This document shows, one piece after another, positions 5,279 to 39,790 of a stretch of DNA of 64,000 nucleotides (within the stretch, counting starts at the first letter, position 1; every line of letters starts with the position of its first letter). The notes beneath the pieces are model-generated. The model was not told the origin of the DNA. It made no database searches and was given only the letters and a program-made list of their open reading frames with translations. The translations under genes and the position numbers were made by a program. The DNA lies in contig CAVVUF010000002.1 in assembly GCA_963751425.1 (NCBI GenBank), forward strand, positions 1,790,717 through 1,854,716, in the 5' to 3' direction. Source of the DNA: an uncultured Chloroflexia bacterium (GTDB lineage: Bacteria > Chloroflexota > Anaerolineae > Anaerolineales > UBA4823).

Positions 5279-6670
5279 TCAGAACAACCGCATTTGGGGG
5301 GCGGTGTAGGTCAGCTCGTCTTGGGCGAGAATTTCATCGAAATTACTGCGCTGGAGCAGCAAGTTATCGAGCATCTGCCGCAGGTGACGGAATTTCAAGA
5401 AGCGCCAGCCTGCCGCTGCACCTGGTGCAGAGGCGTTTATGCCAGAGGAATTTTCTGCTCCCGCGCAGAGCGCCCTCAGGCGCGGGTCATGGCGCAGCTT
5501 GTAAGCTAGCAGGTTGGCGCGCCCGCCGGGGAGGACGATGATGGAGCTGGCGGGTGGAGAGGGCGGGCTGTCTGCTTTGCCGAGCATGATCTCACCGATC
5601 ACGGCCGAGGCTACCAGGTAAAACCAGAAGCGCGGCTGACTTTTTTCATTCACCCAGACCGGCTGCTGTCCTTCCATGGAGTACCCCAGGCGCTTGGCAA
5701 GGGTGGCAAGCTGCTCGTAAGCTGCTTCGATGTCACTGCGGCGGGCAGCCGGGGATTCCTGCGGTCGCAGGCGCCACTGGTCGCTGCCAGGCGGCTCTTC
5801 TACCGCATAAGAGTCCAGGCAGACGTGGATCAGCTCAAGGTCGGGGGTAAGCAGGCCGGGGAAGGCGGTGTTCAGGGCATCTTCAAGCTCAAGGGACTGA
5901 CAGCCTGGATGGCGGAGCAGGTAAATTACCAGGGCTTTTTCGAGACGGTCTGCGGCTGGCAAGGAGACCCTGCTGGAGTCTTTCAGCCACCAATAACCTG
6001 TCTCGGCTGATTCGGTAGCTTCCAGGCGTAAAAAGCCTCCCCGGTAGGTGAGAACATCACGGATGGCAGACTGCGCCAGGCTGAAACTTTCTGCAGGGGA
6101 AGGTTCTTTTTCGGGCTGGTCCGGGCCGCCCGCTCCTGTAGCAGGTTGGATAGCAGCGCCAAGGCGGAAGGTGTGGCTTGTGACGATCCCGGTGAGGGCA
6201 GCAGTGTGCATGGGCAGGTATTGAGCCGGTTGGCCAGTGTTCTGTAAAAATTCCTGGGCTGATTGGCTGGCAGCCTGATGTGCCACCGCCGCCAGGGCAG
6301 TTACGGGTAAAGGAAGGGAAGCCTCTGTGGGGTTGGTAGAAAGCCGCCAGTGCACCTGAGCCTGGGCAGGGTCTGAGCGCAGTGCAAGGCCGCACAGCTC
6401 CAATCCAGCCAGGTCTGCGCTGAGCAAGGCTGCGGAAAGAAAGCCTGCTTCGGCTTCGTTGATCAATCCTAAGATGGGGGTCGTGGGACTTAAGATGGGG
6501 ATCAGGCTGTTGAAAGCGACCGTTAACCCGGCGGTGTACCAGGCCCAATCATAGCGGCGGCGGCGCAAGACGCTTTTGAAAGGCCCAACGGATTGGCTTC
6601 CCCACAGCCAGCCGGACCATAAGGCAGACAGCGTCCAGAAAGCCTGGTTCTGGCGCGGCAGCACAGCCAA
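5279..6670 (-). CDS. Hypothetical protein, C-terminal part of the same gene as 6523..7452
   Basis: Long ORF with protein-like composition and no recognisable domain. It overlaps the upstream ORF by about 150 nt in another frame, across a G9 homopolymer. Confidence 0.4.
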   Translation of the reverse strand: MAVLPRQNQAFWTLSALWSGWLWGSQSVGPFKSVLRRRRYDWAWYTAGLTVAFNSLIPILSPTTPILGLINEAEAGFLSAALLSADLAGLELCGLALRSDPAQAQVHWRLSTNPTEASLPLPVTALAAVAHQAASQSAQEFLQNTGQPAQYLPMHTAALTGIVTSHTFRLGAAIQPATGAGGPDQPEKEPSPAESFSLAQSAIRDVLTYRGGFLRLEATESAETGYWWLKDSSRVSLPAADRLEKALVIYLLRHPGCQSLELEDALNTAFPGLLTPDLELIHVCLDSYAVEEPPGSDQWRLRPQESPAARRSDIEAAYEQLATLAKRLGYSMEGQQPVWVNEKSQPRFWFYLVASAVIGEIMLGKADSPPSPPASSIIVLPGGRANLLAYKLRHDPRLRALCAGAENSSGINASAPGAAAGWRFLKFRHLRQMLDNLLLQRSNFDEILAQDELTYTAPQMRLF

Positions 6671-7452
6671 TACCGCGCCGATGTGCTTCTGCAGATTCTC
6701 GGTATGTGCGGCAAGGCCTTCCAGGTCGCGCAGGCGGCCTTCGAAGAGACAGATGCCACCACTGGGGGGGGGAGCTCAGGCCACAGTGTGAGAGGCACGG
6801 GGGGCTGGCCAGTTGCCCATAAACTGAGGCTGTGTTCCAAAGCCAGCCAGATATTATTCTCGCGGAACTTTGGCGGGATGGTGAGCTGGCGCGGGCGTTC
6901 TCGGCGGGGAGGGTACTGCCAGAGCGTATTCGCCTGGTCGCAAGCTGCCAGGAGCAGGGCTGCCAGCATATTGCGGCGGACATGCGGCAGGTTCAGCCCA
7001 TCGAGCTTGTTGATCAGGGTGAAGAGGGCATAGACTGCCCTGGGCAGGTAAACTGACAGCGCTTCTTCGGCGTGGATGCGGTCCGGGTCATCGGCGGGGG
7101 CGATGCGCTCCAGGGCGCGCGCCCGGTGCAGACCGCCCGAGGCAAAATGGTGCGCTTTTTCGGCATCCGCGGTGGTGGCAGGAAACTCTCCATTAGACCC
7201 ACAGTTGGAGCAGGAATATATTCTTGCAAATGGCGTCGTAGCGCCTTTCTCCCACAAAAAGGCTTCGACCATCACTGTCTGAGCGCATTGGCCGCAGGTG
7301 GTGGTGTAAAGGCTGCGGATATGCGGTTCCATGCGCTCGTCACCTTTGCTGGAAGCAGCCAGCTCTGCCAAAACTGCTTGCAGCTCAGCCTCCGATGGCG
7401 GATGGGCGGTCATTTCGAGCAGGAAGCGGGCGATGGGGTTATTAGCCGCCAC
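6523..7452 (-). CDS. Hypothetical protein, N-terminal part, with a Cys4 zinc-ribbon-like motif; frameshifted into the next ORF
   Basis: 'TTCGQCAQ...YSCSNCGSNGEF' pairs of CxxC. The translation degenerates after 'PPPVV', exactly at the G/C homopolymer at 6764..6772. Confidence 0.4.
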   Translation of the reverse strand: MAANNPIARFLLEMTAHPPSEAELQAVLAELAASSKGDERMEPHIRSLYTTTCGQCAQTVMVEAFLWEKGATTPFARIYSCSNCGSNGEFPATTADAEKAHHFASGGLHRARALERIAPADDPDRIHAEEALSVYLPRAVYALFTLINKLDGLNLPHVRRNMLAALLLAACDQANTLWQYPPRRERPRQLTIPPKFRENNIWLALEHSLSLWATGQPPVPLTLWPELPPPVVASVSSKAACATWKALPHIPRICRSTSARYWLCCRARTRLSGRCLPYGPAGCGEANPLGLSKASCAAAAMIGPGTPPG

Positions 7453-7672: not shown

Positions 7673-9082
7673 TTACCTTACAACCGGAATCAGAATGGTA
7701 TATACAGCCTGGTAAGTTTTCAGAGCCCCGCTGACTTGATCGTTCTGCAGGCCTCCCAGTGCGAGGAGGTTTTGGTCGAGAGGCACGGAAGCCAGGTAAG
7801 CCCAAGGCTGCGGGCTAGGCTGTTCCAATTCGGTCCAGGTGCTTGTGGAAGGGAAGAATTGATAAGAAGCAGCTCTGGAAGATGAAGGCGGCACCCCGCC
7901 GATGACCAGGATGGAATCGGCGATGGAGGCAGCCCCCATGGCGTAACGCCCTTCGGGGAGAGGGGTGGCGGTACTCCAAGGGGAGGCACCGCTGCCTTCT
8001 AGACTTGGGATATAGGTTTCGTTGCGTGTAAGGGGGGTCTGCCCATCAAAACCGCCCAGTAAGTAGATCTTGCCACCGGCCACAGCGGCAGCCGCTGCAT
8101 AGCGAGGCGACAGCAAAGGGGTGCGTTCACTCCAGGTTTTCAGAGTCGGATCATATTCCAGGACCCGGTCATAGATCGTTTTCCCGTCCCACCCGCCGAA
8201 CAGGTAGAGCTTGCCTTCAAAGGCGACCAGGGCATAGGCGCTGACCGGGTAAGGCAGATCGGGACCACTCTCCCAGGTATCTTGCAGCGGGTCGTAGATT
8301 TCAAGGGATTGGGAGGCTTTCCCATTCGCCTGCCTGCCACCGGGGACGTAGATCTTCCCGCCTAAAACAGCTGCCTGGATCTCAGAGACAGGCAGGGGCT
8401 TGGGTTTGCCTTCATTCCATGTGGAGCTGGCAGGATCAAAAACTTCGAGGCTGGCAGACACACCTTGAGCGGTCTCACCACCAATGGCGTACACCAGGCT
8501 GTTCAAGGCCACTGCAGCCAGCTTGCTGCGTGAGGTTGGCATGGAGGGCAAGGCTTGCCAGCGAGGCTGGGGAGTAGGGGAAGGCGAGACGAGCAGGGGA
8601 AAGACAGCCGCAGCCTGGGTGGGTGGAGAGGTTGGCTTTGGATTGAGATAAAAGCCTACCCCTACCCAACCGAGCACCAGGAGCGCCAGGAGAAGCAGGC
8701 CTACGCCTCCAAACAAAACCCATTTGAGAGCGGGACTGGGCTTCGTTTTGAGTTGGGGTGGTTTGGCTGCCTCTTCTTCGAAGGTGGGTTCCGGGATGGA
8801 GATGGGGAGGCTGAGTGATGGTTCGGTCGGTGAGGTTTTGACCAGTCCATGGTTGATGGCGTACAGGGCAGCTTCGGTGCGCGAGAGAACGCCGATCTTG
8901 GCGAAAATGTTGCGCAGGTGGACCTTGACCGTGTTGGGGCTGATGTAGAGCTTTTGGGCGATCTCTTTGTTGCTGAGGCCCGTGGCTACCAACCGCAGAA
9001 TGCCCAGCTCGCGCTCGCTAAGATCGTTGGTTTCGGGGGAGGCCATGGTGCGATTATACATCAGGTTATTCGATAAGCTCAT
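7673..9082 (-). CDS. Membrane-spanning one-component regulator: cytoplasmic LuxR/FixJ-type HTH, single TM helix, extracytoplasmic Kelch-repeat beta-propeller
   Basis: HTH: '[45 protein letters not shown]'. TM: '[26 protein letters not shown]'. Repeated Kelch blades 'GGKIYVPGG', '[12 protein letters not shown]', '[12 protein letters not shown]', 'LVIGG', 'LLALGG'. Confidence 0.7.
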
Positions 9083-14667: not shown

Positions 14668-15864
14668 ATGAACACTAAGATCTTCCTGAGCGTCGGACGT
14701 ACCTTCACCCCCCAACAAGAAATTTTTGTGACCACCTTGGAAAGTTTTTTGACCAGCCAGGGATTTATTCCCCAGACGGTTGGGCGGACCTACTTTTCCA
14801 GTCAGCAGCCGCTCAGGGCGGTGATGGAATTGATGGATGAATGCGCCGGCTCGATCATCCTGGCTTTCGAGCGCACCCAGATTATCCAGGCTTTTGAGAA
14901 GCGCGGCAGTAAGGATGAGCGCCAGATCGCTGACCTCAAGCTGCCAACGGTGTGGAATCAAATTGAGGCAACGATCGCTTATTCCAAGGGGCATCCGCTT
15001 CTAGTGATCGTTGAAAATGGGTTAAAAGCTGAAGGACTGCTGGAGCAGGGTTATGATTGGTATGTGCAAAGTGTGCCTTTAAACCAGGACGCTCTCTCGG
15101 GGCGCGAATTCCAGGGAATGTTTAGCGACTGGAAACGTCGGGTCGAGCAGAATGCAGCAGCGAAATTCGCTCCTAAAGGGAGCGCCGGGTCGAAAGCCCA
15201 AACCAGTCCGGCTAACCAACCCAACTCTGAACCTGCTCCTGACTCGATGAGGGTGCCCAAAACAGACCCCTCTATTGAGAAAATCCGCATCCTGTTCCTT
15301 ACCGCCAACCCCACCGACACGAACCGCCTGCGCCTGGATGAGGAAAGCCGGGCAATTGACCAGAGTCTGCGCAGGGCAGAGTTCCGCGACCGCTTCGAGC
15401 TCGAGCAGTTCCAGGCGGTGCGCGTGGGCGACCTGCAGGAATGTTTGCTGCGTTTCAAGCCGCACATCGTGCATTTCAGCGGGCACGGAAGCGAAGTGGG
15501 AGAGATTTACTTGCAGGACAGCAATGGGATGAGCAAACCGGTCTCTGAAAAATCACTGGGGAAGCTGTTTGCTGTATTAAAAGACAATATCCGCTGCGTG
15601 GTGCTGAACGCTTGCTACTCACGCACCCAGGCGGACGTGATTGCCGAGCACATCGATGCGGTGGTGGGCATGTCGAAGGAGATTGGCGACCAGGCCGCGA
15701 TCAGTTTTTCGGCAGCCTTTTACCAGGCGCTGGCTTACGGGCGAGACCTGCAGACCGCTTTCGACCTGGGCACCATCCAGATCGACCTGGAATCGATCCC
15801 TGAAGAAGATACCCCCCAGCTCATCGCCCCGCATATCGATCCAAAGACGATGCGGCTGGCTTGA
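14668..15864 (+). CDS. TIR-like (flavodoxin-fold) N-terminal domain fused to a CHAT caspase-like protease domain
   Basis: C-terminal half has the CHAT His/Cys dyad signatures 'IVHFSGHG' and 'VVLNACYS'. N-terminal approx. 150 aa ('KIFLSVGRTF...ILAFER...VWNQIEATIAYSKGHPLLVI') resembles a TIR/DUF1863-like or nucleoside-deoxyribosyltransferase-like fold. That assignment is tentative. Confidence 0.65.
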   Translation: MNTKIFLSVGRTFTPQQEIFVTTLESFLTSQGFIPQTVGRTYFSSQQPLRAVMELMDECAGSIILAFERTQIIQAFEKRGSKDERQIADLKLPTVWNQIEATIAYSKGHPLLVIVENGLKAEGLLEQGYDWYVQSVPLNQDALSGREFQGMFSDWKRRVEQNAAAKFAPKGSAGSKAQTSPANQPNSEPAPDSMRVPKTDPSIEKIRILFLTANPTDTNRLRLDEESRAIDQSLRRAEFRDRFELEQFQAVRVGDLQECLLRFKPHIVHFSGHGSEVGEIYLQDSNGMSKPVSEKSLGKLFAVLKDNIRCVVLNACYSRTQADVIAEHIDAVVGMSKEIGDQAAISFSAAFYQALAYGRDLQTAFDLGTIQIDLESIPEEDTPQLIAPHIDPKTMRLA

Positions 15865-15878
15865 TATAAGAAACACAT

Positions 15879-18153
15879 ATGAGCAAGAAAAAGCCTGTAA
15901 AGGTGGAGATTAATATCAAAGCCATTGCCGGCAGCGGCACAACGAATGTCGCTGGGGGAAATATCGAGCAGAATATCACCCAGCATATTACGATTGTTGA
16001 GGGGAGGGCTTCGGTTGAGACCACACACCCGGCGGTGGAGCCGGGCACCCTGCCACCAGGTTCGCGGCTGCCATTCCGGCGGAATGAGGTTTTCACAGGA
16101 CGGGAGACAGATCTGGAGGTGTTGCGAGAGGCATTGGTGGAAAGGAAGGGCAGTGGGAGGCGGGTGGGGAGTCACCCAGGTAGTGGGGGGGATGGGCGGG
16201 ATTGGCAAGACGCAGCTGGCAGTGGAGTTTTGCTACCGTTATGGTTACTGTTTTACAGGTGTGCACTGGCTCCAGGCGAATCAGGACATTGCGGGGGAGA
16301 TCGCAGCCTGTGGATTTGAGATGGAATTACCCTACTGGCCATCGGCGCAGCCCGAGCAGGTGGAGGTGACCTTGCGGAGCTGGCGCCAATCATCACAGCG
16401 GCTGTTGGTGATGGATAACCTGGAGAGCACCGAAACACTGGGGGAATGGCTGCCGCGTTTGGGGGATGCCTGCGTGCTGCTGACCTCTCGCCGGCAGGAT
16501 TGGCCGCCAGGACTGGGCGTACAGGTGCAACGGATGGGAGTCCTGACTGGGGAGGAAAGCCGGAATCTGCTGGTGAAGTTGGCGCCGCGACTGGAATTCC
16601 TGGATCAGACAGAGTTGGGGAAAGCGGCGGAGAAACTGGGAAATCTGCCCCTGGCCCTCGACCTGGCAGGCAGATACCTGGCTCTGCGGGAAGCGCTTCA
16701 ACTGGGGGAGTACTTGAAGAAGATCGACCAGGCTGGCGGGGCACTGCAAATGGATCACCTGGAGAGTTGGCTAGGCCCTAACCCCACCCGCCATGCACGG
16801 AACCTGGCAGCCACCTTCGAGCTGAGCTGGCGGGAGCTGGACGGGGAGGCGGAGGATCTTAAGGCAGCCAGGCAGATCTTCCTGGCCTGCGGGTACTGTG
16901 CTGCCAACACCCCAATCCCGCGGGAGATTTTGAAAGAGGGGATTATCCAGGATGAACTGTTTCTGGATTTGGGCTTACAACGATTGTATACCTTGGGGCT
17001 GCTGAATAAGGAGCCGCAGGGACCGACGATGCACCCCTTGCTGGAGGAGTTTGCGCGTTTGCAGGATAAGAACGCAGATGAGAGTATACTGACCAGCGTG
17101 GTAGACATTCTAATTCAACTGGGTAACCAGGCCAACAATAGCAGTTTACCCGACCACTTCAAGCCGCTGTACCCCCACTTGCAGGCAGTCGCAAGACATT
17201 CCGAAAAAGCCTCCTTGAAAGAAGATACTGGAAGCCTGTTCAATAACCTGGGATTTTACCTGGATTCCATTGCAGAATATGCCGAGGCGAAACCTTACTA
17301 TGAGCAGGCGCTAGCAATCCGCCGGGAGGTTTTGGGGGAGAAGCACCCCGACACAGCCAGGAGCCTGAACAACCTGGGTGCCTTATTGGATAAAATGGGC
17401 GACTACTCCGGGGCGAAGCCATACTATGAGCAGGCTCTGGCAATCCGTAGAGATGTGCTGGGGGAGAAGCACCCCGACACAGCCAGGAGCCTGAACAACC
17501 TGGGCTACTTGCTGAAGGTCATGGGCGATTATGCCGGGGCGAAATCCTACTATGAGCAGTCGCTATATAACAACCGGGAGTTGCTGGGGGAGAAGCACCC
17601 CGACACAGCCACAAGCCTGAACAACCTGGGTGCCTTGTTGGACAGCATGGGCGACTATGCTGGGGCGAAGCCATACTACGAGCAGGCGCTGGCGATCCGC
17701 CGAGAGGTGCTGGGGGAGAAGCATCCCGACACTGCATTCAGCTTGAACAACCTGGGCTACCTGCTGCAAGCGATGGGCGATTATGTCGGGGCGAAACCTT
17801 ACTATGAGCAGGCGCTATATATCATCCGCGAGGTGCTGGGGGAGAAGCACCCCTACACTGCCCGTAGCTTGAACAACCTGGGCGCGCTGCTGCGGGCGAT
17901 GGGTGATTATGCAGGGGCAAAACCTTACTACGAGCAGGCGCTGGCAATCCGTCGAGAGGTGCTGGGGGAGAAGCACCCCGACACTGCCTTCAGCTTGAAC
18001 AACCTGGGCTACCTGCTGCTGGCAATGGGTGACACAGCCGGAGCGAAGCCTTTCTTCGAGCAGGCGCTGCAGATCTTTGAGGAAAAGCTGCCTGCCGGTC
18101 ACCCAAATATACGGCTTGTCAAAGACAACCTGGAGAGATTGGGGGAAGAGTAG
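15879..18153 (+). CDS. STAND NTPase, NB-ARC (Apaf-1/R-protein type) followed by about 10 TPR repeats (TPR_10/12 type); frameshifted near a G-rich tract (two ORF pieces 15879..16319 and 15925..18153)
   Basis: Frame 0 reads '...EVFTGRETDLEVLREALVERKGSG', then frame +1 reads '...VTQVVGGMGGIGKTQLAVEF' (Walker A of NB-ARC). Downstream are 'LLVMDNLE' (Walker B-like), 'LPLALDLAG' (GLPL-like), then repeated 'AKPYYEQALAIRREVLGEKHPDTARSLNNLGALL' TPR units. The switch lies in the G-rich stretch 16147-16191. A 14-nt gap after the CHAT gene implies an operon. Confidence 0.75.
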
Positions 18154-18316
18154 GCAGTCAGGAGCCAGGGTTGATCGTGTTGAAAGAGGCACGCCGGTAC
18201 TACCGCCTGCCCTTACGTTTGGTGGGAGAGCTTATGATATGAAAAGCAAGCCTCAAAACCCATTGCTTAAAGGTTGAAAATAATATAAGATACTTAAGTA
18301 GCCTAATTCGTTTGGG

Positions 18317-20203
18317 ATGGATGTGATGGAGTCATTCGAAGGAAAATTGCTCGGACATTATCAAATTCTTTCCCAGGTGGATGAGGGGGGGATGGCTACA
18401 ATCTTTAAAGCTATCGATACCCATCTGGAGCGGAACGTAGCGATTAAAATTATCCGCAAGGAAAATTTTAGCCCGAATGTCCTCGAACAGGTGCTCAAGC
18501 GCTTCGAGCGTGAGGCCAAATCACTGGCTCAGCTTTCTCATCCGAATATCGTCAAAGTAATCGATTATGGCGAGTACGAGAACTCTCCATATCTCGTGAT
18601 GGAATTTCTCTCAGGGGGAACGCTCAAACAACGCCTTCAGGAGAAGATCAATACCTACGAGGCTGTGGGATGGCTGATCCCAATTTCGCACGCCCTGGCT
18701 TATGCCCACCACCGTGGGGTGGTCCACCGGGATGTTAAACCTTCCAACATCCTTTTCACCGAAACGAACGAGCCCATGCTGACGGATTTTGGTATCGCGA
18801 AGATCCTGGAAACTCATACGGGTGATTCTTTAACCGGCTCTGGCGTGGGAATTGGCACTCCCGAATACATGGCACCTGAACAGGGCCTTGGGCAGGCGGT
18901 GGATGCGCGCACAGATATCTATGCTTTGGGGATTGTTCTGTATGAGATCCTCACCGGTCGAAGGCCTTTTCAGGCTGATACGCCCATGTCCATCGTCCTC
19001 AAGCACATGAATGAGCCACTGCCCGATCCCAGGCAGTTTACCCCCACCATTTCTGAGTTTGCTGAACAAGTGCTCAATAAAGCCCTGGCAAAAAATCCGG
19101 ATGATCGTTATGCGGATATGGTTGCCTTTGCCAAGGCTCTTTCGCAATTAGCTTCCGAGTACCCCACCGAGCCTGGCAAGTGGATGCCCCTCAAAGCGGT
19201 GGAGGCGGCTGCTTTTACGACAGGACAAGCCGTCGCAGGCAAGCCAGTAGGCACAGGACCCATTTCAGAAGAAGATACCGGAAAACTCCTGATCCGCATC
19301 AGCCGCCTGGAAAAGGTGGTGGAGGAAAGCCTGGCAGCTGAGGATTTCGACGATGCTGAAAATTTAATCCCCACCATCGAGAGTCTTGGCGAACAAGGCC
19401 GCCAGTCTGGAGCCCGCCTGCGCGTTACCTTGGAACACGCTCGGAATAAAGCACACCAGCGAGATACGGATATCTCGAATATCAGATTAGCCTTCCCAAA
19501 AGCTTTGGAGGCTGAGGATATCCCAAAAGCAGAAGAGATGCTGCTCCAGCTCAAAAAACTTGGACCGAAGGGCGTCACACTCGCCAACCAGTTCCAGATT
19601 GCGATCGATACATCCAGGCAGCAAATCACTCTCCGTCAAATTGAAATCAACCGGTTAAAGAACCTGGCTGAGCAGAATATTGCACAGGAGAATTTTTCTC
19701 AAGCCGAGGCTTTGATTCTTTCCTTATCGGTCATCGGGACACAAGGAAAAGCTCAGGCTGCCAGGCTCCAGGAGGCTTTGGAGAAAAGCCAGCAGCAGGT
19801 GGGGCAGCGTAAAGCGCAAATTTATCGTCAATCTGGGTTGGTCGAGAAGCAAATTTCTGAAAGAAATTGGGATGCGGCGCGGAAATCGCTCAAAGAGCTT
19901 GAGAGAATGGGCGCCGAGGGGAAAGCCTCTGCTGAAAAGTTAGGTGAAACCCTGAAAAAAGCAGAGAACGAAGTCACATTCCTGGAACCTATACTCGTCA
20001 GACCGCCTGTTGAGCAGACGATAACATCCCCGCCAATCTCTATGCCTGCCAAGCCCGCCGCTACTGTAAAAGCCCCGGAAAAAAGGAGCATTCCGGGTTT
20101 ACGCTGGATTATCTTCGGGGCGATTTTCTTGTTCATAGGCCTTTTAGCCGGTGGGGGGTTAGCGGTCAGCCTGGCTACCAGGCAAACGCCTAAAAATCGG
20201 TGA
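18317..20203 (+). CDS. Hanks-type Ser/Thr protein kinase with a long coiled-coil repeat region and a C-terminal TM helix
   Basis: 'VAIKII' (VAIK Lys), 'HRDVKPSNIL' (catalytic loop), 'DFGIAK' (DFG), 'GTPEYMAPE' (APE). Four roughly 35-aa internal repeats of the type 'AE..L..L...G..GKA.A..L.E.LEK'. TM 'WIIFGAIFLFIGLLAGGGLAV'. Confidence 0.85.
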   Translation: MDVMESFEGKLLGHYQILSQVDEGGMATIFKAIDTHLERNVAIKIIRKENFSPNVLEQVLKRFEREAKSLAQLSHPNIVKVIDYGEYENSPYLVMEFLSGGTLKQRLQEKINTYEAVGWLIPISHALAYAHHRGVVHRDVKPSNILFTETNEPMLTDFGIAKILETHTGDSLTGSGVGIGTPEYMAPEQGLGQAVDARTDIYALGIVLYEILTGRRPFQADTPMSIVLKHMNEPLPDPRQFTPTISEFAEQVLNKALAKNPDDRYADMVAFAKALSQLASEYPTEPGKWMPLKAVEAAAFTTGQAVAGKPVGTGPISEEDTGKLLIRISRLEKVVEESLAAEDFDDAENLIPTIESLGEQGRQSGARLRVTLEHARNKAHQRDTDISNIRLAFPKALEAEDIPKAEEMLLQLKKLGPKGVTLANQFQIAIDTSRQQITLRQIEINRLKNLAEQNIAQENFSQAEALILSLSVIGTQGKAQAARLQEALEKSQQQVGQRKAQIYRQSGLVEKQISERNWDAARKSLKELERMGAEGKASAEKLGETLKKAENEVTFLEPILVRPPVEQTITSPPISMPAKPAATVKAPEKRSIPGLRWIIFGAIFLFIGLLAGGGLAVSLATRQTPKNR

Positions 20204-20742
20204 GCCCAGGTCAGGAGACCTCACAAGGCAACCAAACTGCTACGGAGAATCAGGAAGGCAGCCTGGACTCAACCAAAATGGCTCTTACAGCACTGCCAAC
20301 TGCTACCGCCGCTGGAGGCATCCTACCTAAACCAACAGCTACTCCCAGCCCTCCTGCTTTGCCAACAGTCACTGCTTCGCTAACCCCGACCCTGACGCCT
20401 ACCCCGCCACGCTATGAGCTAACGATAGACACCGAGAATGCCAATGTCCGCACTGGCCCTGGTACGGTCTACAATATCCTGGCTACAATGCCGCGCGGCA
20501 CGGTATTTGAGGTGGTTGGGCGTAGCGCGGCGGGAGATTGGCTGGTGGTCGAGCTGGAAAACGGCAAGACCGGGTGGATCGCTACTAGAGTGATCCTTTA
20601 CAGATTCGATGCCAACCTGCTGCCAACCGTCCAGGCGCCCCCGACACCGATCGTGCCAACCAAGAAACCCACGGATGTGAAATCCGACCAGTCACCCGGT
20701 CAACCATCCAATCCGCCTACCTGGACGCCACCGCCTCCGTAA
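20200..20742 (+). CDS. Thr/Pro-linker plus SH3b domain; probably the frameshifted extracytoplasmic C-terminus of the kinase
   Basis: No signal peptide. Overlaps the kinase stop (GTGA). 'TPTLTPTPP' linker then 'ANVRTGPGTVYNILATMPRGTVFEVVGRSAAGDWLVVELENGKTGWI' (bacterial SH3). An A5 homopolymer at 20192-20196 lies just upstream of the junction. Confidence 0.5.
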   Translation: MSPGQETSQGNQTATENQEGSLDSTKMALTALPTATAAGGILPKPTATPSPPALPTVTASLTPTLTPTPPRYELTIDTENANVRTGPGTVYNILATMPRGTVFEVVGRSAAGDWLVVELENGKTGWIATRVILYRFDANLLPTVQAPPTPIVPTKKPTDVKSDQSPGQPSNPPTWTPPPP

Positions 20743-26113: not shown

Positions 26114-29100
26114 TCAGCTCTTTCCGCTGCGCCAGATCTTCTCGATTTCATAGCTGACCAGATCTTCTTGATACTTTGCCATTTTAGCCTGGTATTCGTC
26201 TCCCTGGGCTTTGTACAAATCGATTTGGCTTTCGTATTCTGCCTGGATCTGGTCCACATCTTTCATATACGAATCCAAGGCGTTGAGGAACCCGACCATG
26301 GCAACCTGATCGGTCGGATCCTCTGGTTTTTCGGGTCGTGGAGGAAACTCTGGGCGAGGGGGTTCTGATCCCAGCTCAGCCGGCTCGACTGGCTCGGCTT
26401 CGTCGACTGCTGAGACATAATAGGAACCAACCCCGGGAAAATCGCACGAACCCGGCTTAAAGACATTCAATCCAAGGCACCGGCACCCGAACTGCTCTTT
26501 TTGATCCAGAGTCATGATATCTTTGATGTCAAACTCAAGCTTCCAGCAAGGGTCTGCAGCTACATCCGATCCAACACCTAAGATCCCCACCACACCTTCT
26601 AATGCCCAGCGGATGGAAGCGATCTGGCTAATCTTGGATGGCACGGGGCTCAGCACGCCGCTCAAAACGATCTGCGGGATGATAAACATGATCATGATCA
26701 TTGGAGCCGAGCTGGCGGCGGGAGATATTGCTGAGGCCAGCAAACCACAGATCATGCCCGATAAAACCGCTAAGAATAGGGTGATATACAGCAGCAGATA
26801 TTCAGGCCCGTGAATTGGCATCTTAAAGGCGATGGATTGCAGCACGGTATATGCCAGCGCATGGAACAGAGCCAACAAAATTGCTACCCAAATTTTCGAT
26901 CCAACGTAAGGGAAGATTTTCAGGTTCACCAACCGCTCTCGTTTGTAGATGTCGGTCTCCTTCACAAATTCTCTCATTTGAGACAATCCACCGACCAGCA
27001 AGCAGTACAAGGTGAGAAGGAAAAAGGCAATGATTCCGTTGTTCGCGTCGCCATTGACCCAATCGAAGGGTTTATTGCCCATCAAGGGCGCGATGACGAG
27101 GCTTAACATGCCAACGGCTGGGGCAATGAAAATCATCAAAATCATACTGGAACGGTCGCGCGAAAGGATCCTTAAATTTCTCGCGGATAATACAATGAAC
27201 TGTTGCAGCGAGGATACCCTGGCTCTCGAGCGTTTCTTGCGCTTGGTTTCTTTTTTTGTTTGAACCTGGGCAGCCAGCGGTAAACCATTTTGGTCAAGTT
27301 TCAAAGGCTCTGCAATATACTTCTGGTATGCCGGGCATTCTTGAAAGCGTTTGGCCCAATCCTGTGCCGAACCCTTCGATGGATCGTCCAGGATGGCGTA
27401 GATTTGGTCAAATTCCATCGTGCTGGAGCGCTGCTCACGCTCTGTACGGTATTGATCAAAATATGCCAGGGCTTCATCGGGTGGACCGAACCATGCCAGG
27501 TAGCCCCCACGAGCCAGGAATACGACCTTATCTGCCAACATGACATTCTTGGTAGCATGCGTAACCATAATAATGGTGCGACCCTGGTCAGCTAACCGGC
27601 GGCACAGGTGCATGAAAGCCGTTTCAGTGCCTGGGTCCAGGCCAGAAGTGGGTTCATCCAGAAAGAATAACCCGGGACGGGTGATCAGCTCGACGCCGAT
27701 TGAGACCCGTTTCTGCTGTCCTCCGCTCAAGGAGCTGATCTGGTTGTCCTTTCGGTGTGCCAGGTCGAGGTCGTCCAGTACTTCCATGATCCGTTTATGG
27801 CGTTCCGCCTTCGTTGTATCGCGAGGCATGCGCAGTTTCGCGGCGTAGTTCAGAGCCTGGTACACCGTTAACTCCATGTGGATGATATCCCGCTGAGGGA
27901 CAAATCCAATCTCATTGCGGATCGCATCGAAGTTCCGATAGACATCGATGCCATTGACAATCACTTTGCCATGGGTGGCTGGGCGGTACCCGGCGATGGC
28001 ATCTACCAGGGTCGATTTCCCGCCGCCGCTCTGCCCGACAACCACAATGAACTCACGCGGTTGGAAGACAAGCGAGATATTCGCCAGGATGTTGAGGTTC
28101 TTGCGCACCCATTTATTCAATCCCAATGCGGTAACTTGCAGCCCGCTGGTATCGTCGTACTTGACGATTTGATCTTGACCTAGAATAAACCGGTACTGAC
28201 CGATACGAAGGGCATCTTTTGGATTGAGATCTGTTTTCCTACTAATGCGCTCATTGTTGACGAAGGTCCCGTTTGCACTTTGCAGGTCGGTTACGAAGTA
28301 ACGTTTTCCAACTCGCTCGACTTGAGCGTGATAGCGCGAGATCGTGGGCATATCCAGCACTACATCATTCGATGGGTCTCGTCCAAAGGTTAATTTATCT
28401 TTCTGACCAAATTGGATTGCTTGTGCTTGCAGGCTGACCTGCATTTCTGACGTTGATTGGTAGGCAATCGATACCATCATGCCTGGCTCACGGCTGTCAA
28501 TCCGCAAAATATCCCCATGCTGGAGGGACCTGCGCCCAGTCACTGCCCGCCCCTGGCAGGTCAAGGTATTGGTCGCATCGGGTGAGATGATCAATTCATA
28601 CCCGCTGGCTAAACGCTCGATTTCAGCATGGTGCCGGGAGACGAGAGGAGATGGAATCACGATATCGTTATCCTCTGATCTGCCAATGGACATGCGCTCG
28701 CGATCCAGAATGAATGTCTGGGAGGTTTGCCCGGCGATGGTGACAACCAGCTTGGAAGGCTCACTTACACCTTCCATTTTTCCTAAAGACAGGGATTCGA
28801 GCATGGTTTGCCCAAAATCGGGTGGCTTTGCAAGAGATCCAAGGTTCGTAGATCCACTATTTGTGGCCTCAAGGGACGTTTGAGTTTTGGTAATTGATGT
28901 CAATGGCAAGTGCACGATCATAGCCACAGCAGGCGCACTACTTTGACCTTCCATGTGGATTTCATCCCCATCGTGGAGTAGGATCCGTCCGGAACCTGGT
29001 TGGCCGTTGACGATCATGACATTGGCGACACCAGACAGGATAACCAGGTAATAATTGCCTCCCTCAAATTCCAGGCGGGCATGGTGGCGCGAGACGATCC

Positions 29101-29533
29101 CAGAGGAGATCACGATATCATTATCGTCTGCCCTGCCGATCGTCATGCTGTCACTTCGCAGCGGGTAGCGGTTTGTCGCAGTGCCTGAAATGGTAACCTC
29201 TAGGTTCGGAGGGTCTGATTCCTGCAAACCCTCTTGAAAAACCATTAATACCTGGTCCCCGAGGTAGATCTGATCGCCGGACTTGATAGGAACTTTCGCT
29301 TTGATCGGGTCTCCGTTGACAAACGTACCGTTCAGGCTGTTGAGGTCCTCCAGGTAACACTGGCCTCCTTCCAGGGTGATCTGTGCGTGCTGGCGCGATA
29401 CTACTTTATTATCCAGGATGATATCCGCCGGCGCCATGCGTCCGATAACCATGACAGGAGCCTGTAAGTCGATCACCTGTTCCTTGGCCAATCCTTTTTG
29501 CACAATCAAGGATGGTATGCCTGATGAGGTCAT
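26114..29533 (-). CDS. ABC exporter fusion with four N-terminal FHA domains: 4xFHA, then ABC ATPase, then ABC-2/ABCG-type permease (Rv1747-like architecture)
   Basis: Four FHA cores: 'VMVIGRMAPADIILDNKVVSRQHAQI', 'MTIGRADDNDIVISSGIVSRHHARL', 'MSIGRSEDNDIVIPSPLVSRHHAEI', 'LTFGRDPSNDVVLDMPTISRYHAQV'. Walker A 'GQSGGGKST', signature 'LSGGQQKRVSIG', Walker B 'LFFLDEPTSGLD'. About 6 C-terminal TM helices and a coiled-coil tail. Confidence 0.85.
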   Translation of the reverse strand: MTSSGIPSLIVQKGLAKEQVIDLQAPVMVIGRMAPADIILDNKVVSRQHAQITLEGGQCYLEDLNSLNGTFVNGDPIKAKVPIKSGDQIYLGDQVLMVFQEGLQESDPPNLEVTISGTATNRYPLRSDSMTIGRADDNDIVISSGIVSRHHARLEFEGGNYYLVILSGVANVMIVNGQPGSGRILLHDGDEIHMEGQSSAPAVAMIVHLPLTSITKTQTSLEATNSGSTNLGSLAKPPDFGQTMLESLSLGKMEGVSEPSKLVVTIAGQTSQTFILDRERMSIGRSEDNDIVIPSPLVSRHHAEIERLASGYELIISPDATNTLTCQGRAVTGRRSLQHGDILRIDSREPGMMVSIAYQSTSEMQVSLQAQAIQFGQKDKLTFGRDPSNDVVLDMPTISRYHAQVERVGKRYFVTDLQSANGTFVNNERISRKTDLNPKDALRIGQYRFILGQDQIVKYDDTSGLQVTALGLNKWVRKNLNILANISLVFQPREFIVVVGQSGGGKSTLVDAIAGYRPATHGKVIVNGIDVYRNFDAIRNEIGFVPQRDIIHMELTVYQALNYAAKLRMPRDTTKAERHKRIMEVLDDLDLAHRKDNQISSLSGGQQKRVSIGVELITRPGLFFLDEPTSGLDPGTETAFMHLCRRLADQGRTIIMVTHATKNVMLADKVVFLARGGYLAWFGPPDEALAYFDQYRTEREQRSSTMEFDQIYAILDDPSKGSAQDWAKRFQECPAYQKYIAEPLKLDQNGLPLAAQVQTKKETKRKKRSRARVSSLQQFIVLSARNLRILSRDRSSMILMIFIAPAVGMLSLVIAPLMGNKPFDWVNGDANNGIIAFFLLTLYCLLVGGLSQMREFVKETDIYKRERLVNLKIFPYVGSKIWVAILLALFHALAYTVLQSIAFKMPIHGPEYLLLYITLFLAVLSGMICGLLASAISPAASSAPMIMIMFIIPQIVLSGVLSPVPSKISQIASIRWALEGVVGILGVGSDVAADPCWKLEFDIKDIMTLDQKEQFGCRCLGLNVFKPGSCDFPGVGSYYVSAVDEAEPVEPAELGSEPPRPEFPPRPEKPEDPTDQVAMVGFLNALDSYMKDVDQIQAEYESQIDLYKAQGDEYQAKMAKYQEDLVSYEIEKIWRSGKS

Positions 29534-36063: not shown

Positions 36064-36396
36064 TTAGCCTTTTATTTCGAGAACATTTAAGGCTGATTTT
36101 GCTGAGGCGACTTGTTCTGGTTGCCACCCCAATTCAGTACTCATCCGTCTTAAATGGTTAATGACAGCCTCTTTACCTTCTTTATCGAGGGAAGTAAATG
36201 CCTCAACTATCAGGTCGGCCTGGCGGGATAATAATGCATCCCAAAGCTTTTCCAATTCATCTTGAGCTTGTTCCATAAATAGGCGGTATCCCAAAAAATG
36301 CCGGTTGGGCGTTAAGGTCAAGCCGTAAGTGTATATTCGATCCAGAGATGATCTGGAGAGTCGTCTACCTTGATCGCTCCTATAAAGGCTTTCCAT
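36064..36396 (-). CDS. Small alpha-helical ORF; either a separate gene or the frameshifted C-terminal extension of the MBL-fold protein
   Basis: Overlaps the 3' end of 36318..37808 by 78 nt in another frame. The translation is protein-like ('...EQAQDELEKLWDALLSRQADLIVEAFTSLDKEGKEAVINHL...'). Confidence 0.3.
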   Translation of the reverse strand: MESLYRSDQGRRLSRSSLDRIYTYGLTLTPNRHFLGYRLFMEQAQDELEKLWDALLSRQADLIVEAFTSLDKEGKEAVINHLRRMSTELGWQPEQVASAKSALNVLEIKG

Positions 36397-37808
36397 TGGT
36401 CATTTGAAATGAGATTGCCCTTAGGCATATCTGGGACTTGGGGAGGAACATTGGGATCAGGACCACTTCCAGATGGTTCTTCAATGTTGGTAATGATCCG
36501 ACCTTTTGTCCGTTGTTGTAATAGCTGGGAAAGAATTGAGGCTGGCATCTTCCAATGCTTGCTTTTTGCTTTTTCTATGTCTACTGGGATCATCGCAATC
36601 AAATCATCCGCATTCATTGCTAATAAACCACCCTCTAATTGGGTTGCATTGTGACTACCGTGATGACCCACCTTATAGAATGTGGTTCGATTCAGGATAT
36701 CTTTTCCAGTCGGAGATCCAGTCCAAGATTTCCAGTTACCGTATTGTGCATCAGCCGCGAAAAGTAAGATTTTCTTGTTTGGAAGCATTTCAAAAGCAAG
36801 CACCAGGCTTGTGTTGTTGATATCATTATCAAGATCCAGCGCTAATGAACCTGCTCCGCCTAACCAATCCGTATCAATCCGGCGCCAATCCAGCTCAGGA
36901 TTTGGCGATGTATCTGTGCCATAATAATTTTTGTAAAATACTTGAGTTGGATCTTGGGATACGTCATCTATTGGAAAGCCGAGTGAAGTATCAAAAGGCA
37001 GGCTTAAGTTGACTAACTCTTTCAGATCACTCTTAGTCAAACCTTCTGGAAGCCTTCCATTTTGGGTTCGGTTTCCTAATTGAAGAACTGCAGTGGTGAA
37101 AGCGGTTGATTGATTGACAGCTTGTCCACGGTCGAGCTGATTTTTAGTCTTAGGCGGATCGCTACGTTTCAGCGCTTGAAGATCTTTGGGGGGAGCAAGG
37201 ACATGCACCAGTACATCATCCAATCCTTCTAAAGGAAGAACAGTTGTCGGGCCATTCACATCTGGTTGAGGAGCCAGGTATAACTGCTTATTTCCCCAGC
37301 CTTTCACCACATCCATGGCTCCGGGTATTAGAAAATCTTGCAGCTCCTGATAACTCTCGTATTGCTCGCCTTTCTTTTTTAATTCCTCTAAAGCGATATC
37401 TAGAGTTTGAGCGGCTATTTTCCAGTAAGCCCGAAATGTCTCTTTTACATCTGGATCGTCTTTATTTTCTGTCCAAGGCATCCAAACTTGGTTAATCTTG
37501 AAATTCTTTTTAAAAAGGCTCTCATGGAAAACAAATCCAGAAAGATGGTCGGCGTGTTCATGAGTTACAGCGAGCACATGCAGACGTCCGCGAGTAGTAC
37601 TCCGAATATCTTTGACAATTTTCTCGAGGCGGTCTTTTTCTCCCGCTGTTTTCTGGAGAACCCCACAATCAATTAATACATACCGAGTAATCGAGCCTTT
37701 CTTAAATTTTAATAAGAAACAGTCACCCAATCCAGGACGGTACATCCGTATGGAAACCTGCAATTTAGAAGAAGAAGTGGGTGTTGTGGATGATGTCTGG
37801 TTGCTCAT
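36318..37808 (-). CDS. Metallo-beta-lactamase-fold hydrolase with a long C-terminal region of unknown function
   Basis: 'YVLIDCGV' and 'HVLAVTHEHADHLSGF' (HxHxDH zinc motif), later 'KVGHHGSHN'. About 496 aa. Start overlaps the upstream gene stop (ATGA at 37805-37808). Confidence 0.7.
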   Translation of the reverse strand: MSNQTSSTTPTSSSKLQVSIRMYRPGLGDCFLLKFKKGSITRYVLIDCGVLQKTAGEKDRLEKIVKDIRSTTRGRLHVLAVTHEHADHLSGFVFHESLFKKNFKINQVWMPWTENKDDPDVKETFRAYWKIAAQTLDIALEELKKKGEQYESYQELQDFLIPGAMDVVKGWGNKQLYLAPQPDVNGPTTVLPLEGLDDVLVHVLAPPKDLQALKRSDPPKTKNQLDRGQAVNQSTAFTTAVLQLGNRTQNGRLPEGLTKSDLKELVNLSLPFDTSLGFPIDDVSQDPTQVFYKNYYGTDTSPNPELDWRRIDTDWLGGAGSLALDLDNDINNTSLVLAFEMLPNKKILLFAADAQYGNWKSWTGSPTGKDILNRTTFYKVGHHGSHNATQLEGGLLAMNADDLIAMIPVDIEKAKSKHWKMPASILSQLLQQRTKGRIITNIEEPSGSGPDPNVPPQVPDMPKGNLISNDQWKAFIGAIKVDDSPDHLWIEYTLTA

Positions 37809-39790
37809 TCCTTTTCTCCTTCCATTTCATCACGGTGAAGCAATGCAAAGATCTCAAAGGATTCTGAAACTTCGCCCAACGCCTTCCGGTATGGATCACC
37901 AAAGTAGGTGGCCTGGAGCGAAGGGACTTGGCCTCCTTCTAAAATATAACGACGGAGAGCTTCAAGTCGTCTCTGGCTTGTTACCGATTTTCCGATCACG
38001 TAACGAACTTTACCACTTTCCAACGAGATGAGGAAAGTGACTCCTCCTCGAAATAGAAAATCCGCGGTGGGTGGGGAGATTTTCCCGGCCTCCACTTGGT
38101 TCTGTATGTTTGGATCAATATAACCACGCCGTGCCTGGCTTACTTCAACAACAAGGTCAGGCTGGCTGTATTGGTTTTGACTGACCCGATAAGCAAGGCG
38201 GACAGAATTTACTTTGAATGGTAAACCATCCGGATAAAGAACAAGGCTTGGCGAAGGATGCCAGAGTACCAAACGGAGCGATTCTTCGAAATTGTAAAGA
38301 TCCTCAGTGGATAACCTGGCAGTAGATTTAAGATAATTTGAGAGGTCTTTATTCAACCAGCTTTGGAACAGGTTCGCGCAACTAGAGTTGCTTTCGTACA
38401 ACTGCTTTCGGATTTCAATTGCTCTGTCTTCTCTGGATCGATTTACACTCGAACGAGCTACAGTTTCATATTCCTGCATTTTCCGTAAAATTTTGGGAGA
38501 AGAGAAGAAATCACTGATTAATTCCCCGCCTCCACTCGGTGGTCGCCACAGCAAGCTTTCTTCAGATAGGCTGCGTACTTTATCAGGGTATATACCGTAG
38601 CGGCGGAAAGACTCCATCAAGGCAATCCGGTAACCATCAGGGTCCGAAGGGGAGACATCATAATCGGCTGTCATTAAAGCGCGCAGGTATTCTCCAAAAG
38701 TGATATCGACAACGGGAGAATAATCCAGAGCGCGAATGCACATTGTAAGAAGGTGCTGTGAAATTTGCGCAGCTTCCTCAGCCATACGGGTGACCAGGTC
38801 AGGATGAATAGCACCAGGAAGAAGGATCCCAGTACCTCCAGTGGCAATACGTAGGAGATCGGCGATACGAATTTTATAAACAGTCAGGAAGGCATCAAAT
38901 ATTGCTGCCACAAGGATTGATCCGCGTTGGTGAGGCTCTATTGTCTTGGAAAGCAGTGAAGGATCGGCTTTTTCCCCGATTGCACTTCGTAGCGCTCGCC
39001 GGTTGCCAATAGCCTGACCGAATTGCTGCGCCAACTCAGCAAGTAAATTATCGCTGGAAAGGTCTCCTCGTGTGCGTGCAATTTGGTGATAGAGCACTTG
39101 GGGGTATGAAAAATGCTGGAACAGGGCAATGAGATCGGCAAAAGCTTCATGGAAGGCTAAGACATCTGTATTGCTTGGAGTATTGAAATTTGGATGGATA
39201 CCATCTAGAAGAGCATGGGTAACCTCATGGGCAATGATATCGTGGGATAGGCACGTGAAGACAATGCTGCCAGGTAAGATCTTGCTGTCGATATCGCCGG
39301 AGGCGGGAAAATACCCAAACAAGATTGCCTTCTTCACTGGGCTGTAATAGGCATTCGCTTCCCGTAATGCGTGTGGATAAAGTCGCAGCCTGGGAACATA
39401 TTTCCCCTCACCGTTTACCTCTTGAGGGGACCAAAGTACAGGCCTGCTCAAGGCTTCTTCGAAGTTCGCAATGGTTCTACTGGCTACGGCATAAACCATT
39501 TGTTGGTGGAACTGAGGCGTACCTTCGGAAGGGGTCAGGCCTCCTTGTGCTAATAAAAACTTGTGATCTAGATTGACCGGTGGGTAAAACATATTGGATG
39601 GTGGATCGACATCGACTACTTCAAGGTATTCACCGACGGGTCCTGGGTCTAATTCCTCCCACGGGATATTTAGTGAAAGTTGATTGATCGTTGCAGCTTC
39701 TAACTCCAGGTTTAGACTTGGATCAAATGCAAAAACATTGAGCTGCCGAGATTTTGGACGTTGAGGCAAGAAATTTACATCACTAGACAT
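37805..39790 (-). CDS. Thermolysin-like (gluzincin) HExxH zinc metallopeptidase-domain protein, 661 aa
   Basis: 'IIAHEVTHALL', then 18 aa, then 'AFHEAFADLIALF' (compare thermolysin HELTH...NEAISD). No signal peptide. Translationally coupled to the MBL gene. Confidence 0.6.
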   Translation of the reverse strand: MSSDVNFLPQRPKSRQLNVFAFDPSLNLELEAATINQLSLNIPWEELDPGPVGEYLEVVDVDPPSNMFYPPVNLDHKFLLAQGGLTPSEGTPQFHQQMVYAVASRTIANFEEALSRPVLWSPQEVNGEGKYVPRLRLYPHALREANAYYSPVKKAILFGYFPASGDIDSKILPGSIVFTCLSHDIIAHEVTHALLDGIHPNFNTPSNTDVLAFHEAFADLIALFQHFSYPQVLYHQIARTRGDLSSDNLLAELAQQFGQAIGNRRALRSAIGEKADPSLLSKTIEPHQRGSILVAAIFDAFLTVYKIRIADLLRIATGGTGILLPGAIHPDLVTRMAEEAAQISQHLLTMCIRALDYSPVVDITFGEYLRALMTADYDVSPSDPDGYRIALMESFRRYGIYPDKVRSLSEESLLWRPPSGGGELISDFFSSPKILRKMQEYETVARSSVNRSREDRAIEIRKQLYESNSSCANLFQSWLNKDLSNYLKSTARLSTEDLYNFEESLRLVLWHPSPSLVLYPDGLPFKVNSVRLAYRVSQNQYSQPDLVVEVSQARRGYIDPNIQNQVEAGKISPPTADFLFRGGVTFLISLESGKVRYVIGKSVTSQRRLEALRRYILEGGQVPSLQATYFGDPYRKALGEVSESFEIFALLHRDEMEGEKE

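Follow-up and report, generated by a model that had tools for sequence, protein, structure and literature searches.

A compact CHAT protease with a TIR/nucleosidase-like N-terminal domain and an adjoining NB-ARC-TPR gene in an uncultured Chloroflexia bacterium

Results

We examined a 64,000-nucleotide (nt) stretch of DNA from an uncultured Chloroflexia bacterium (contig CAVVUF010000002.1, positions 1,790,717 to 1,854,716), hereafter the window, in which a gene for a CHAT caspase-like protease is followed on the same strand by a gene for an NB-ARC-TPR protein of the STAND type. Our preferred explanation, which we hold at a probability of about one half, is that these are two separate conflict-system genes, juxtaposed by insertion into a variable slot, and not an obligate pair. 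The features of the locus are collected in Table 1. We conclude that the most valuable lead is the family defined by the N-terminal domain (N-domain) of the protease and not the gene pair.

Table 1. Features of the locus in window coordinates (aa, amino acids; NDT, nucleoside 2-deoxyribosyltransferase; TM, transmembrane; ORF, open reading frame; HMM, hidden Markov model; pLDDT, predicted local distance difference test score)
Feature	Position	Strand	Basis
Gene for a two-domain protein of 398 aa: TIR/NDT-like N-domain, disordered linker, compact CHAT domain	14668..15864	+	ORF, translation, Pfam and PADLOC CHAT matches, full-length model
N-domain (aa 1-170), Rossmannoid TIR/NDT/MilB-like fold	14668..15177	+	
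Disordered linker (aa 169-202), rich in Pro, Ser, Ala and Gln	15172..15273	+	pLDDT ~30; length differs among homologues
Compact CHAT caspase-like protease domain (aa 205-393)	15280..15846	+	Family HMM 4e-96, conserved dyad, structural matches
Codon of catalytic His273	15484-15486	+	CHAT dyad motif
Codon of catalytic Cys316	15613-15615	+	CHAT dyad motif
Variable slot from behind the CHAT stop up to the kinase promoter region, filled here by the NB-ARC-TPR gene only	15865..18238	+	Homology break against L089/L090; 147-nt gap on the P0001 contig
5' part of the NB-ARC-TPR gene, frame A, ~91 aa: short Gly/Asn/Ile-rich head and conserved LPPGSRLPFRRNEVFTGRE pre-NTPase motif	15879..16151	+	
Frameshift zone, rich in G runs; one indel restores an ORF of 757-758 aa	16149..16171	+	
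3' part of the NB-ARC-TPR gene in frame B (666 aa in the public gene call): NB-ARC NTPase, winged-helix/MHPL region, TPR sensor	16153..18153	+	
Walker A motif of the NB-ARC domain	16189-16212	+	
Tandem TPR array, 6.3 x 126 nt (42-aa units of TPR_10 type), DNA 78-83% identical	17278..18069	+	
Conserved right flank, outside the module: gene for a Hanks kinase with a TM segment and an SH3 domain (808 aa in relatives), frameshifted in the window	18317..20742	+	

The CHAT gene and its N-terminal domain

The upstream gene product matched the Pfam CHAT family PF12770 over aa 210-364 at 31.6 bits (gathering threshold 24). In a PADLOC search of the region, the protein matched the 'chat' model at 8e-25, and the SAVED_CHAT model aligned at positions 273-451 only, which is the CHAT part. 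Both motifs of the catalytic dyad, HFSGHG (His273) and LNAC (Cys316), are invariant across an alignment of 22 full-length sequences; among 129 members of the subfamily of compact, ~190-aa CHAT domains, the first is present in 120 and the second in 121. A model of the full-length protein (pLDDT 80.6; predicted template modelling score 0.5) comprised two well-folded domains separated by a linker in which pLDDT dropped below 50. The top Foldseek match of this model was the activated SAVED-CHAT filament 8TL0 (E = 1e-13), and caspases 1, 4, 6, 7 and 9 matched at 1e-4 to 1e-3. A preliminary description of the window, made without database searches, had called a CHAT caspase-like protease with a His/Cys dyad, and the profile matches, the conserved motifs and the caspase-like fold bear this out. 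Elsewhere, the compact CHAT domain serves as a C-terminal module behind EAD1, EAD10-VMAP-M1, EAD11, bDLD1, TIR_2, REC, kinase, HD-CE and DO-GTPase heads.

The N-domain (searched as aa 1-171) gave zero Pfam matches even at E ≤ 10, the TIR profiles PF01582, PF13676, PF08937 and PF10137 included, and a sequence search of the PDB returned no match. It likewise failed the TIR_2 and ThsB-type profiles, and its hhalign alignment to TIR_2, at a probability of 14% only, is of low confidence. Two of its homologues are labelled 'TIR domain-containing protein' by UniRef and hypothetical by NCBI. The fold predicted from an alignment of 22 homologues (pLDDT 90.7) found its top structural matches in enzymes, MilB and the deoxyribosyltransferases, with Foldseek in agreement. 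On these structural matches, the N-domain is placed within the TIR/deoxyribosyltransferase superfamily, yet not specifically with TIR, and its predicted fold makes it a previously unmodelled branch of the TIR/NDT/MilB superfamily. The term 'TIR-like' in the preliminary description needs qualifying: the predicted fold is Rossmannoid, of the TIR/NDT type, and no TIR sequence profile was matched. Identity to the CMP N-glycosidases MilB and BcmB, the NDTs, DNPH1 and ThsI is 9-14%, with no link between sequence profiles, and an inserted β-hairpin (aa 70-92) further separates the N-domain from MilB/BcmB, the NDTs and DNPH1. ThsI, the effector of the experimentally validated type VIII Thoeris system, contains a domain that is annotated as a MilB-type CMP hydrolase (bioRxiv 10.64898/2025.12.03.692087).

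Residue conservation was scored over 222 family members (213 for Ser8). Near-invariant positions are Glu100 (221/222), Arg69 (219/222), Trp96 (218/222) and Ser8 (213/213). The segment W96-N-Q-I-E100 has the W-x-x-x-E spacing seen in TIR, Glu100 lies in the helix after the third strand, and the low-confidence hhalign alignment pairs it with the invariant Glu of the TIR_2 profile. From the model we infer that Glu100 would be topologically equivalent to the catalytic Glu of TIR and deoxyribosyltransferase enzymes.

A profile search of 1.84 billion representatives (E ≤ 1e-3) recovered 1,253 clusters of the N-domain family at 50% identity, and one-genome-per-species data yielded 79 loci, distributed among Chloroflexota, Acidobacteriota, Alpha-, Beta- and Gammaproteobacteria (Pseudomonas fluorescens, Rhizobium beringeri, Vreelandella and Methylobacterium among the proteobacterial carriers), Verrucomicrobiota, Cyanobium, Nitrospira, Planctomycetota and Methanothrix; the nearest comes from the metagenome-assembled genome of an uncultured Chloroflexia bacterium. 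The domain nearly always stands at the N-terminus, with a variable partner at the C-terminal end. The commonest partner is a single, strongly conserved Gly-rich TM helix, in a protein of ~215 aa that also carries a conserved juxtamembrane motif (e.g. LTVAELLGGLKPVQLWSVLVALAALVAGAFALGGKLFGG). This form, which is found at loci including L014, L023-L026 and L032-L053 (genes at ~8001-8650), has no conserved neighbour, is known from Pseudomonas and Rhizobium to Nitrospira and Methanothrix, and is annotated as hypothetical by NCBI; the TM tails of the N-domain relatives gave no Pfam match. Fusions to EAD7, EAD1 or the bDLD1 death-like adaptor occur in Chloroflexota and Acidobacteriota, and some proteins end without a partner or with an unknown domain. 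Fusion to a compact CHAT domain is rare (the window, L001/L004, L029, L043 and L078).

Clustering of all ORFs within 4 kb of the 79 loci revealed no conserved neighbour of the N-domain genes, and the sole recurrent clusters were antisense shadows of the N-domain gene itself. A phage origin of the domain was rejected, with a relative encoded on only 2 of 2.9 million viral contigs. At five Acidobacteriota loci (L013, L019, L021, L022 and L028), the N-domain-EAD7 gene adjoins a second small gene (184-226 aa) whose product also ends in an EAD7-like domain, an arrangement that suggests paired EAD7 effectors. Since each half of the window protein is combined elsewhere with alternative EAD, death-like and other partners, both belong to the effector-sharing network of Kaur et al.

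The NB-ARC-TPR gene

The downstream gene starts with an ATG at 15879, 14 nt past the CHAT stop and exactly where the preliminary description had placed it. Its Pfam match is marginal, since PF00931 scored 24.1 bits (threshold 23.5) with the TPRs trimmed and 22.2 with the TPRs attached. A profile of the NB-ARC family run against the PDB matched AfsR at 2e-17 and the plant NLRs (nucleotide-binding leucine-rich-repeat receptors) Roq1, NRG1-like (RPW8-NLR), NRC1/3/4 and ADR1 at 3e-6 to 7e-3. Walker A (GMGGIGKT), Walker B (LLVMDN), GNLPLAL and MHPL motifs are all present, in invariant or near-invariant alignment columns. These matches and motifs support the earlier assignment to the NB-ARC STAND ATPases of the Apaf-1/plant-R type. 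The same description had counted about 10 TPR repeats; we found ~7 units of 42 aa, seen as seven stretches of Pfam TPR_10 and as the DNA array in Table 1. The protein has the NB-ARC plus TPR_10/12 architecture, and differs from AfsR in having no SARP/BTAD DNA-binding head and from plant NLRs in having no TIR or coiled-coil head.

NF040586 is the NCBIfam 'FxSxx-COOH system TPR protein', and the frame-B fragment of the gene scored 306.1 bits against its cut-off of 300; model positions 3-24 fall in frame A and 27-687 in frame B. We rejected an FxSxx-COOH system of ribosomally synthesised and post-translationally modified peptides, as the score barely passes the cut-off and the ORFs scanned around the module (522-29533 of the window; small peptide genes were not searched) include no radical-SAM/SPASM maturase and no FxSxx peptide gene. 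NF040586 appears to capture NB-ARC-TPR proteins generally.

The nearest homologue of the NB-ARC protein is 50% identical, compared with 93% for the CHAT protein. Homologues come from Methanothrix, Anaerolineales and other Chloroflexota, and carry TIR_2, EAD1, EAD7, caspase, trypsin, PNP or Mrr heads. The short head of the window protein (15879-16050) resembles a Gly/Asn/Val-rich motif that many members of the family have in common, among them P0124, P0129-P0132, P0137, P0139, P0146 and P0148. In homologues such a motif, e.g. SVAIGGDVSGSTI or GGSISAGNINCKGDV, stands ~30-40 residues ahead of an LPPGS anchor, in some cases with one or two TM helices before it.

The gene is interrupted by a frameshift, which the preliminary description had located to 16140-16200 and which we confirmed and narrowed to 16149-16171: a 1-nt deletion or a 2-nt insertion anywhere in this zone restores the full-length ORF. 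The public gene call (P0121, 666 aa, 100% identical) begins just past the shift, so the indel is present in the deposited assembly. Except for this one shift, the frame runs through 757 codons without another stop or indel, and both halves retain all conserved motifs, those of the NTPase included. Three other frameshifts occur within 16 kb, in otherwise well-conserved genes. Two of them affect the gene orthologous to that of a 798-aa protein (5279-7452, -) and fall, relative to the related locus L001, at G homopolymers (6774 and 7526). The third splits the kinase-SH3 gene near an A5 run (~20190-20205); L001 is itself frameshifted in its GAF gene. Given these neighbouring shifts and the position of two of them at G runs, the shift in the NB-ARC gene is probably an assembly error of the long-read homopolymer kind, which we judge at roughly three to one over a pseudogene. 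A programmed frameshift was rejected on the same neighbouring shifts and on the lack of a slippery motif in the G-run-rich zone.

The slot behind the CHAT gene

For the region behind the CHAT stop we compared the window with relatives at 93% (P0001 contig), 89% (L001), ~86% at the nucleotide level (L089/L090), 69% (P0013) and 60% identity (P0019). Close relatives have their flanks in common, namely GAF-PAS-HD, CHAT and kinase genes. On the contig of the 93%-identical orthologue, the GAF-PAS-HD and CHAT genes are followed by the kinase-SH3 gene, with a gap of 147 nt behind CHAT. L089/L090 have the same flanks, and a gene for a 171-aa Imm5_like protein (PF21805) lies 37 nt behind CHAT (L089 2644-3367). 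Against L089/L090, the DNA homology of the window breaks off right at the CHAT stop (15864) and is picked up again at 18239, 78 nt ahead of the kinase start; no direct repeats longer than 6 nt flank the interval. Because relatives carry nothing, an Imm5-like gene or an NB-ARC-TPR gene after the CHAT stop, this interval is a slot with at least three states: empty (147 nt), Imm5-like and NB-ARC-TPR. The CHAT and NB-ARC genes stand together only in this genome, since the NB-ARC gene fills a swappable slot. The Imm5_like gene behind CHAT in a relative hints, by the annotation of its family, that the CHAT protein may be toxic.

In L001 the CHAT gene lies alone at another site in the same neighbourhood, beside adh_short, and just upstream of it a 78-nt stretch of the Kelch-GerE gene (window 8867-8944) is duplicated at 97% identity (L001 7856-7933), a possible trace of the rearrangement by which the CHAT gene was relocated. 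In the 69% and 60% homologues, N-domain and CHAT are fused as in the window. The 69% homologue is flanked by an acetyltransferase gene and has no STAND gene. The 60% homologue (L087/L088) lies without a STAND gene among SSB, DnaA_N-like and helicase genes, neighbours that suggest that a mobile element carries it in this lineage.

The Hanks kinase (18317) and the FHA-ABC gene (26114-29533, with four FHA domains) noted in the preliminary description are both present. Its suggestion of phospho-regulation found no support: the kinase is a conserved flank whether the slot is filled or empty, and the PADLOC PD-T4-6 matches to it are generic Hanks-kinase matches.

Pairing of the two genes

The preliminary description had read the two genes as a two-gene apoptosis-like module. 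Its domain calls were right, whereas the pairing is not conserved and no adaptor is shared. An HMM of the NB-ARC family, run on the ORFs within 8 kb of each N-domain locus, found a member at 0 of the 79 loci, and the N-domain-CHAT/NB-ARC adjacency is absent in the P0001 contig, L001, L089/L090, L086, L087 and L083-L085. NB-ARC homologues with short heads (P0122, P0151 and P0166) have no CHAT or N-domain neighbour. Since neighbours vary among relatives and none of the 79 loci pairs the two families, this is not a conserved two-gene system. Neither window protein matched an EAD or a death-like (bDLD) domain.

Two known kinds of pairing were considered and rejected. The head of the NB-ARC protein loosely resembles amyloid-signalling motifs, and the order of the genes recalls the amyloid-signalling (BASS) pairs of Dyrka et al., in which an effector gene lies directly upstream of an NB-ARC-TPR gene with a short, Gly/Asn/Val-rich, β-prone N-terminus and for which CHAT and TIR2 are reported as linked effectors (bioRxiv 10.1101/2020.01.06.895854). 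In contrast to BASS pairs, the CHAT protein lacks a matching motif at its C-terminus; nothing similar to the NB-ARC head (aa 1-57) occurs in any frame of the 64-kb window, and the genes upstream of P0151 and P0166 lack a matching motif as well. An EACC1-caspase two-gene system (PMC7159879) does not fit either, as there is no small TM gene upstream and CHAT is C-terminal here, not N-terminal.

Discussion

We propose that the CHAT gene is a self-contained, single-gene unit that would move on its own, and that the gene behind it is a separate unit. The N-domain is predicted to be a proximity-activated enzyme whose substrate would be a nucleotide or NAD-type molecule, with Glu100 as the catalytic residue and Ser8 and Arg69 as phosphate ligands. 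A flexible linker of ~35 residues would tether it to the caspase-like CHAT domain (His273/Cys316). The interchangeable C-terminal partners of the family (TM helix, EAD1/EAD7/bDLD1 or CHAT) could be alternative oligomerisation or recruitment modules that cluster the N-domain. Where CHAT is the partner, protease and N-domain would be activated together, and the protease would act as a co-effector that may cut the linker to free the N-domain; Kaur et al. propose cleavage-release for caspase-linked effectors (PMC7159879, PMC8195603). The product of the second gene would be a STAND ATPase that senses its ligand via the repetitive TPR array and oligomerises upon ATP binding, with a short Gly/Asn-rich head only and no effector domain. 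On this model the two genes would function independently of each other.

Several observations weigh against this explanation. A spacing of 14 nt on one strand suggests co-transcription, and the spacer holds no terminator-like site. An NB-ARC protein without an effector and a CHAT protein without a sensor are complementary. P0239 carries TIR_2, CHAT and this NB-ARC family on one chain (NB-ARC 53% identity over 167 aa), and the use of EAD1 and EAD7 by relatives of the N-domain, CHAT and NB-ARC families links them at the network level. As for the enzymatic role, the hhalign support for Glu100 as the predicted catalytic residue is weak (14%), and the N-domain could be a ligand sensor, given that the best structural match of the whole-protein model is the sensor-protease SAVED-CHAT.

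The first four of these points also speak for a lineage-specific functional pair, newly assembled by insertion of the sensor, in which the NB-ARC-TPR protein senses an invader with its TPRs, oligomerises, and recruits or activates the adjacent N-domain-CHAT protein in trans. The Imm5-like gene in a relative adds that the slot may accommodate genes that modulate the CHAT protein. We consider such a pair possible but doubtful: the adjacency occurs in no other genome examined, effector-less NB-ARC homologues stand alone elsewhere, and neither window protein has an EAD, a death-like domain or a matching amyloid-type motif for recruitment. The CHAT domain of P0239, moreover, belongs to a different, larger subfamily than the compact one.

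The structural match to SAVED-CHAT leads to a second alternative, a sensor-protease in which the N-domain binds a nucleotide-derived messenger made elsewhere, oligomerises and turns CHAT on, as in SAVED-CHAT or as proposed for the caspase of type IV Thoeris; on this view, the N-domain-TM relatives would be membrane effectors gated by the messenger. The PADLOC SAVED_CHAT match is consistent with this, and TIR-derived signals do activate caspase-like proteases (bioRxiv 10.1101/2024.10.24.620036). We nevertheless think it unlikely, as the invariant Glu at the TIR/NDT catalytic position points to catalysis, the top structural matches of the N-domain itself are enzymes, and its fusions to EAD and death-like adaptors are typical of effectors (PMC7159879). 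In addition, a scan of neighbouring ORFs turned up no signal generator of the cyclase, TIR or CD-NTase kind. A decaying locus, in which the NB-ARC-TPR gene is a true frameshifted pseudogene of a horizontally acquired sensor and only the CHAT gene is functional, would fit the shift in the public assembly, the lack of a close relative and the absence of the gene from sister genomes, and it too seems improbable given that both halves keep all conserved motifs and that both comparable frameshifts nearby fall at G homopolymers.

Among known systems, the locus comes closest to the EAD-coupled, NTP-dependent conflict systems (PMC7159879; PMC8195603); the preliminary description had likewise matched it to the NTP-dependent conflict systems of Koonin & Aravind and Kaur et al. 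The EAD-coupled systems combine effectors of the CHAT and TIR types with TPR-bearing STAND NTPases, and each of the three domains seen here has relatives fused to EAD1, EAD7, EAD10, EAD11 or bDLD1, which sets both window proteins within this network. EAD-linked effector genes may sit in an operon or elsewhere in the genome, apart from the NTPase (PMC7159879, PMC8195603). The window proteins differ in carrying no EAD or death-like adaptor and in an adjacency that is not conserved, and the N-domain has no Pfam model and was not found among the families named in these two papers.

The SAVED-CHAT protein of type III-B CRISPR (8TL0; bioRxiv 10.1101/2023.06.23.546230) likewise has an N-terminal nucleotide-related domain and a C-terminal CHAT domain of ~200 aa, whereas the window N-domain is Rossmannoid and TIR/NDT-like, not SAVED, and the ORFs scanned include neither CRISPR nor cyclase genes. 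Type IV Thoeris (bioRxiv 10.1101/2024.10.24.620036) also joins a TIR-superfamily domain and a caspase-superfamily protease in one unit. It does so with two genes, a diffusible N7-cADPR signal and a caspase with a C-terminal sensor, whereas the window protein is one fused gene with nothing after CHAT and an N-domain that TIR_2 and ThsB profiles do not recognise.

A bolder extension, which we offer tentatively and think unlikely as a whole, is that the N-domain founds a large, unnamed TIR/MilB-like immune family whose output is set by swappable partners. N-domain-CHAT would then be the single-chain counterpart of the TIR-to-caspase route of Thoeris IV or of SAVED-CHAT, and the slot behind its stop a docking site for exchanged regulators, NB-ARC-TPR here and Imm5-like in the sister. 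If this were true, the locus would show, as a natural experiment, how an apoptosome-like pair of sensor and caspase is put together.

A second, unrelated CHAT protein is encoded elsewhere in the window (39995-42247, +; 750 aa, CHAT at aa 595-732, dyad motifs YFYCHGG and FINGCHT). Its gene lies within a low-GC island at ~36-48 kb (GC 0.42-0.47, compared with 0.55 upstream) and is divergent from two unannotated genes (36318-39790, -), one of which encodes a 496-aa product whose N-terminal segment matches PADLOC LmuA (1.6e-16), an Avs1a head and DRT RTasMBL. By these matches, it may be another defence locus.

What is new here is an unmodelled TIR/nucleosidase-like family fused to a compact CHAT domain; the adjoining NB-ARC-TPR gene is ordinary and arrived by insertion. 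The three-state slot shows how sensor and effector genes come to adjoin, and it cautions against inferring systems from one adjacency. If our preferred explanation of two separate genes holds, the locus is not a new apoptosome-like system. It would instead expose an uncharacterised, widespread TIR/nucleosidase-like family that is plugged into the bacterial death-domain/EAD network and, in few lineages, fused to a caspase-like protease. Glu100-dependent hydrolysis of NAD+ or nucleotides and cleavage of the linker by CHAT would, if true, make it a new effector type for bacterial immunity.

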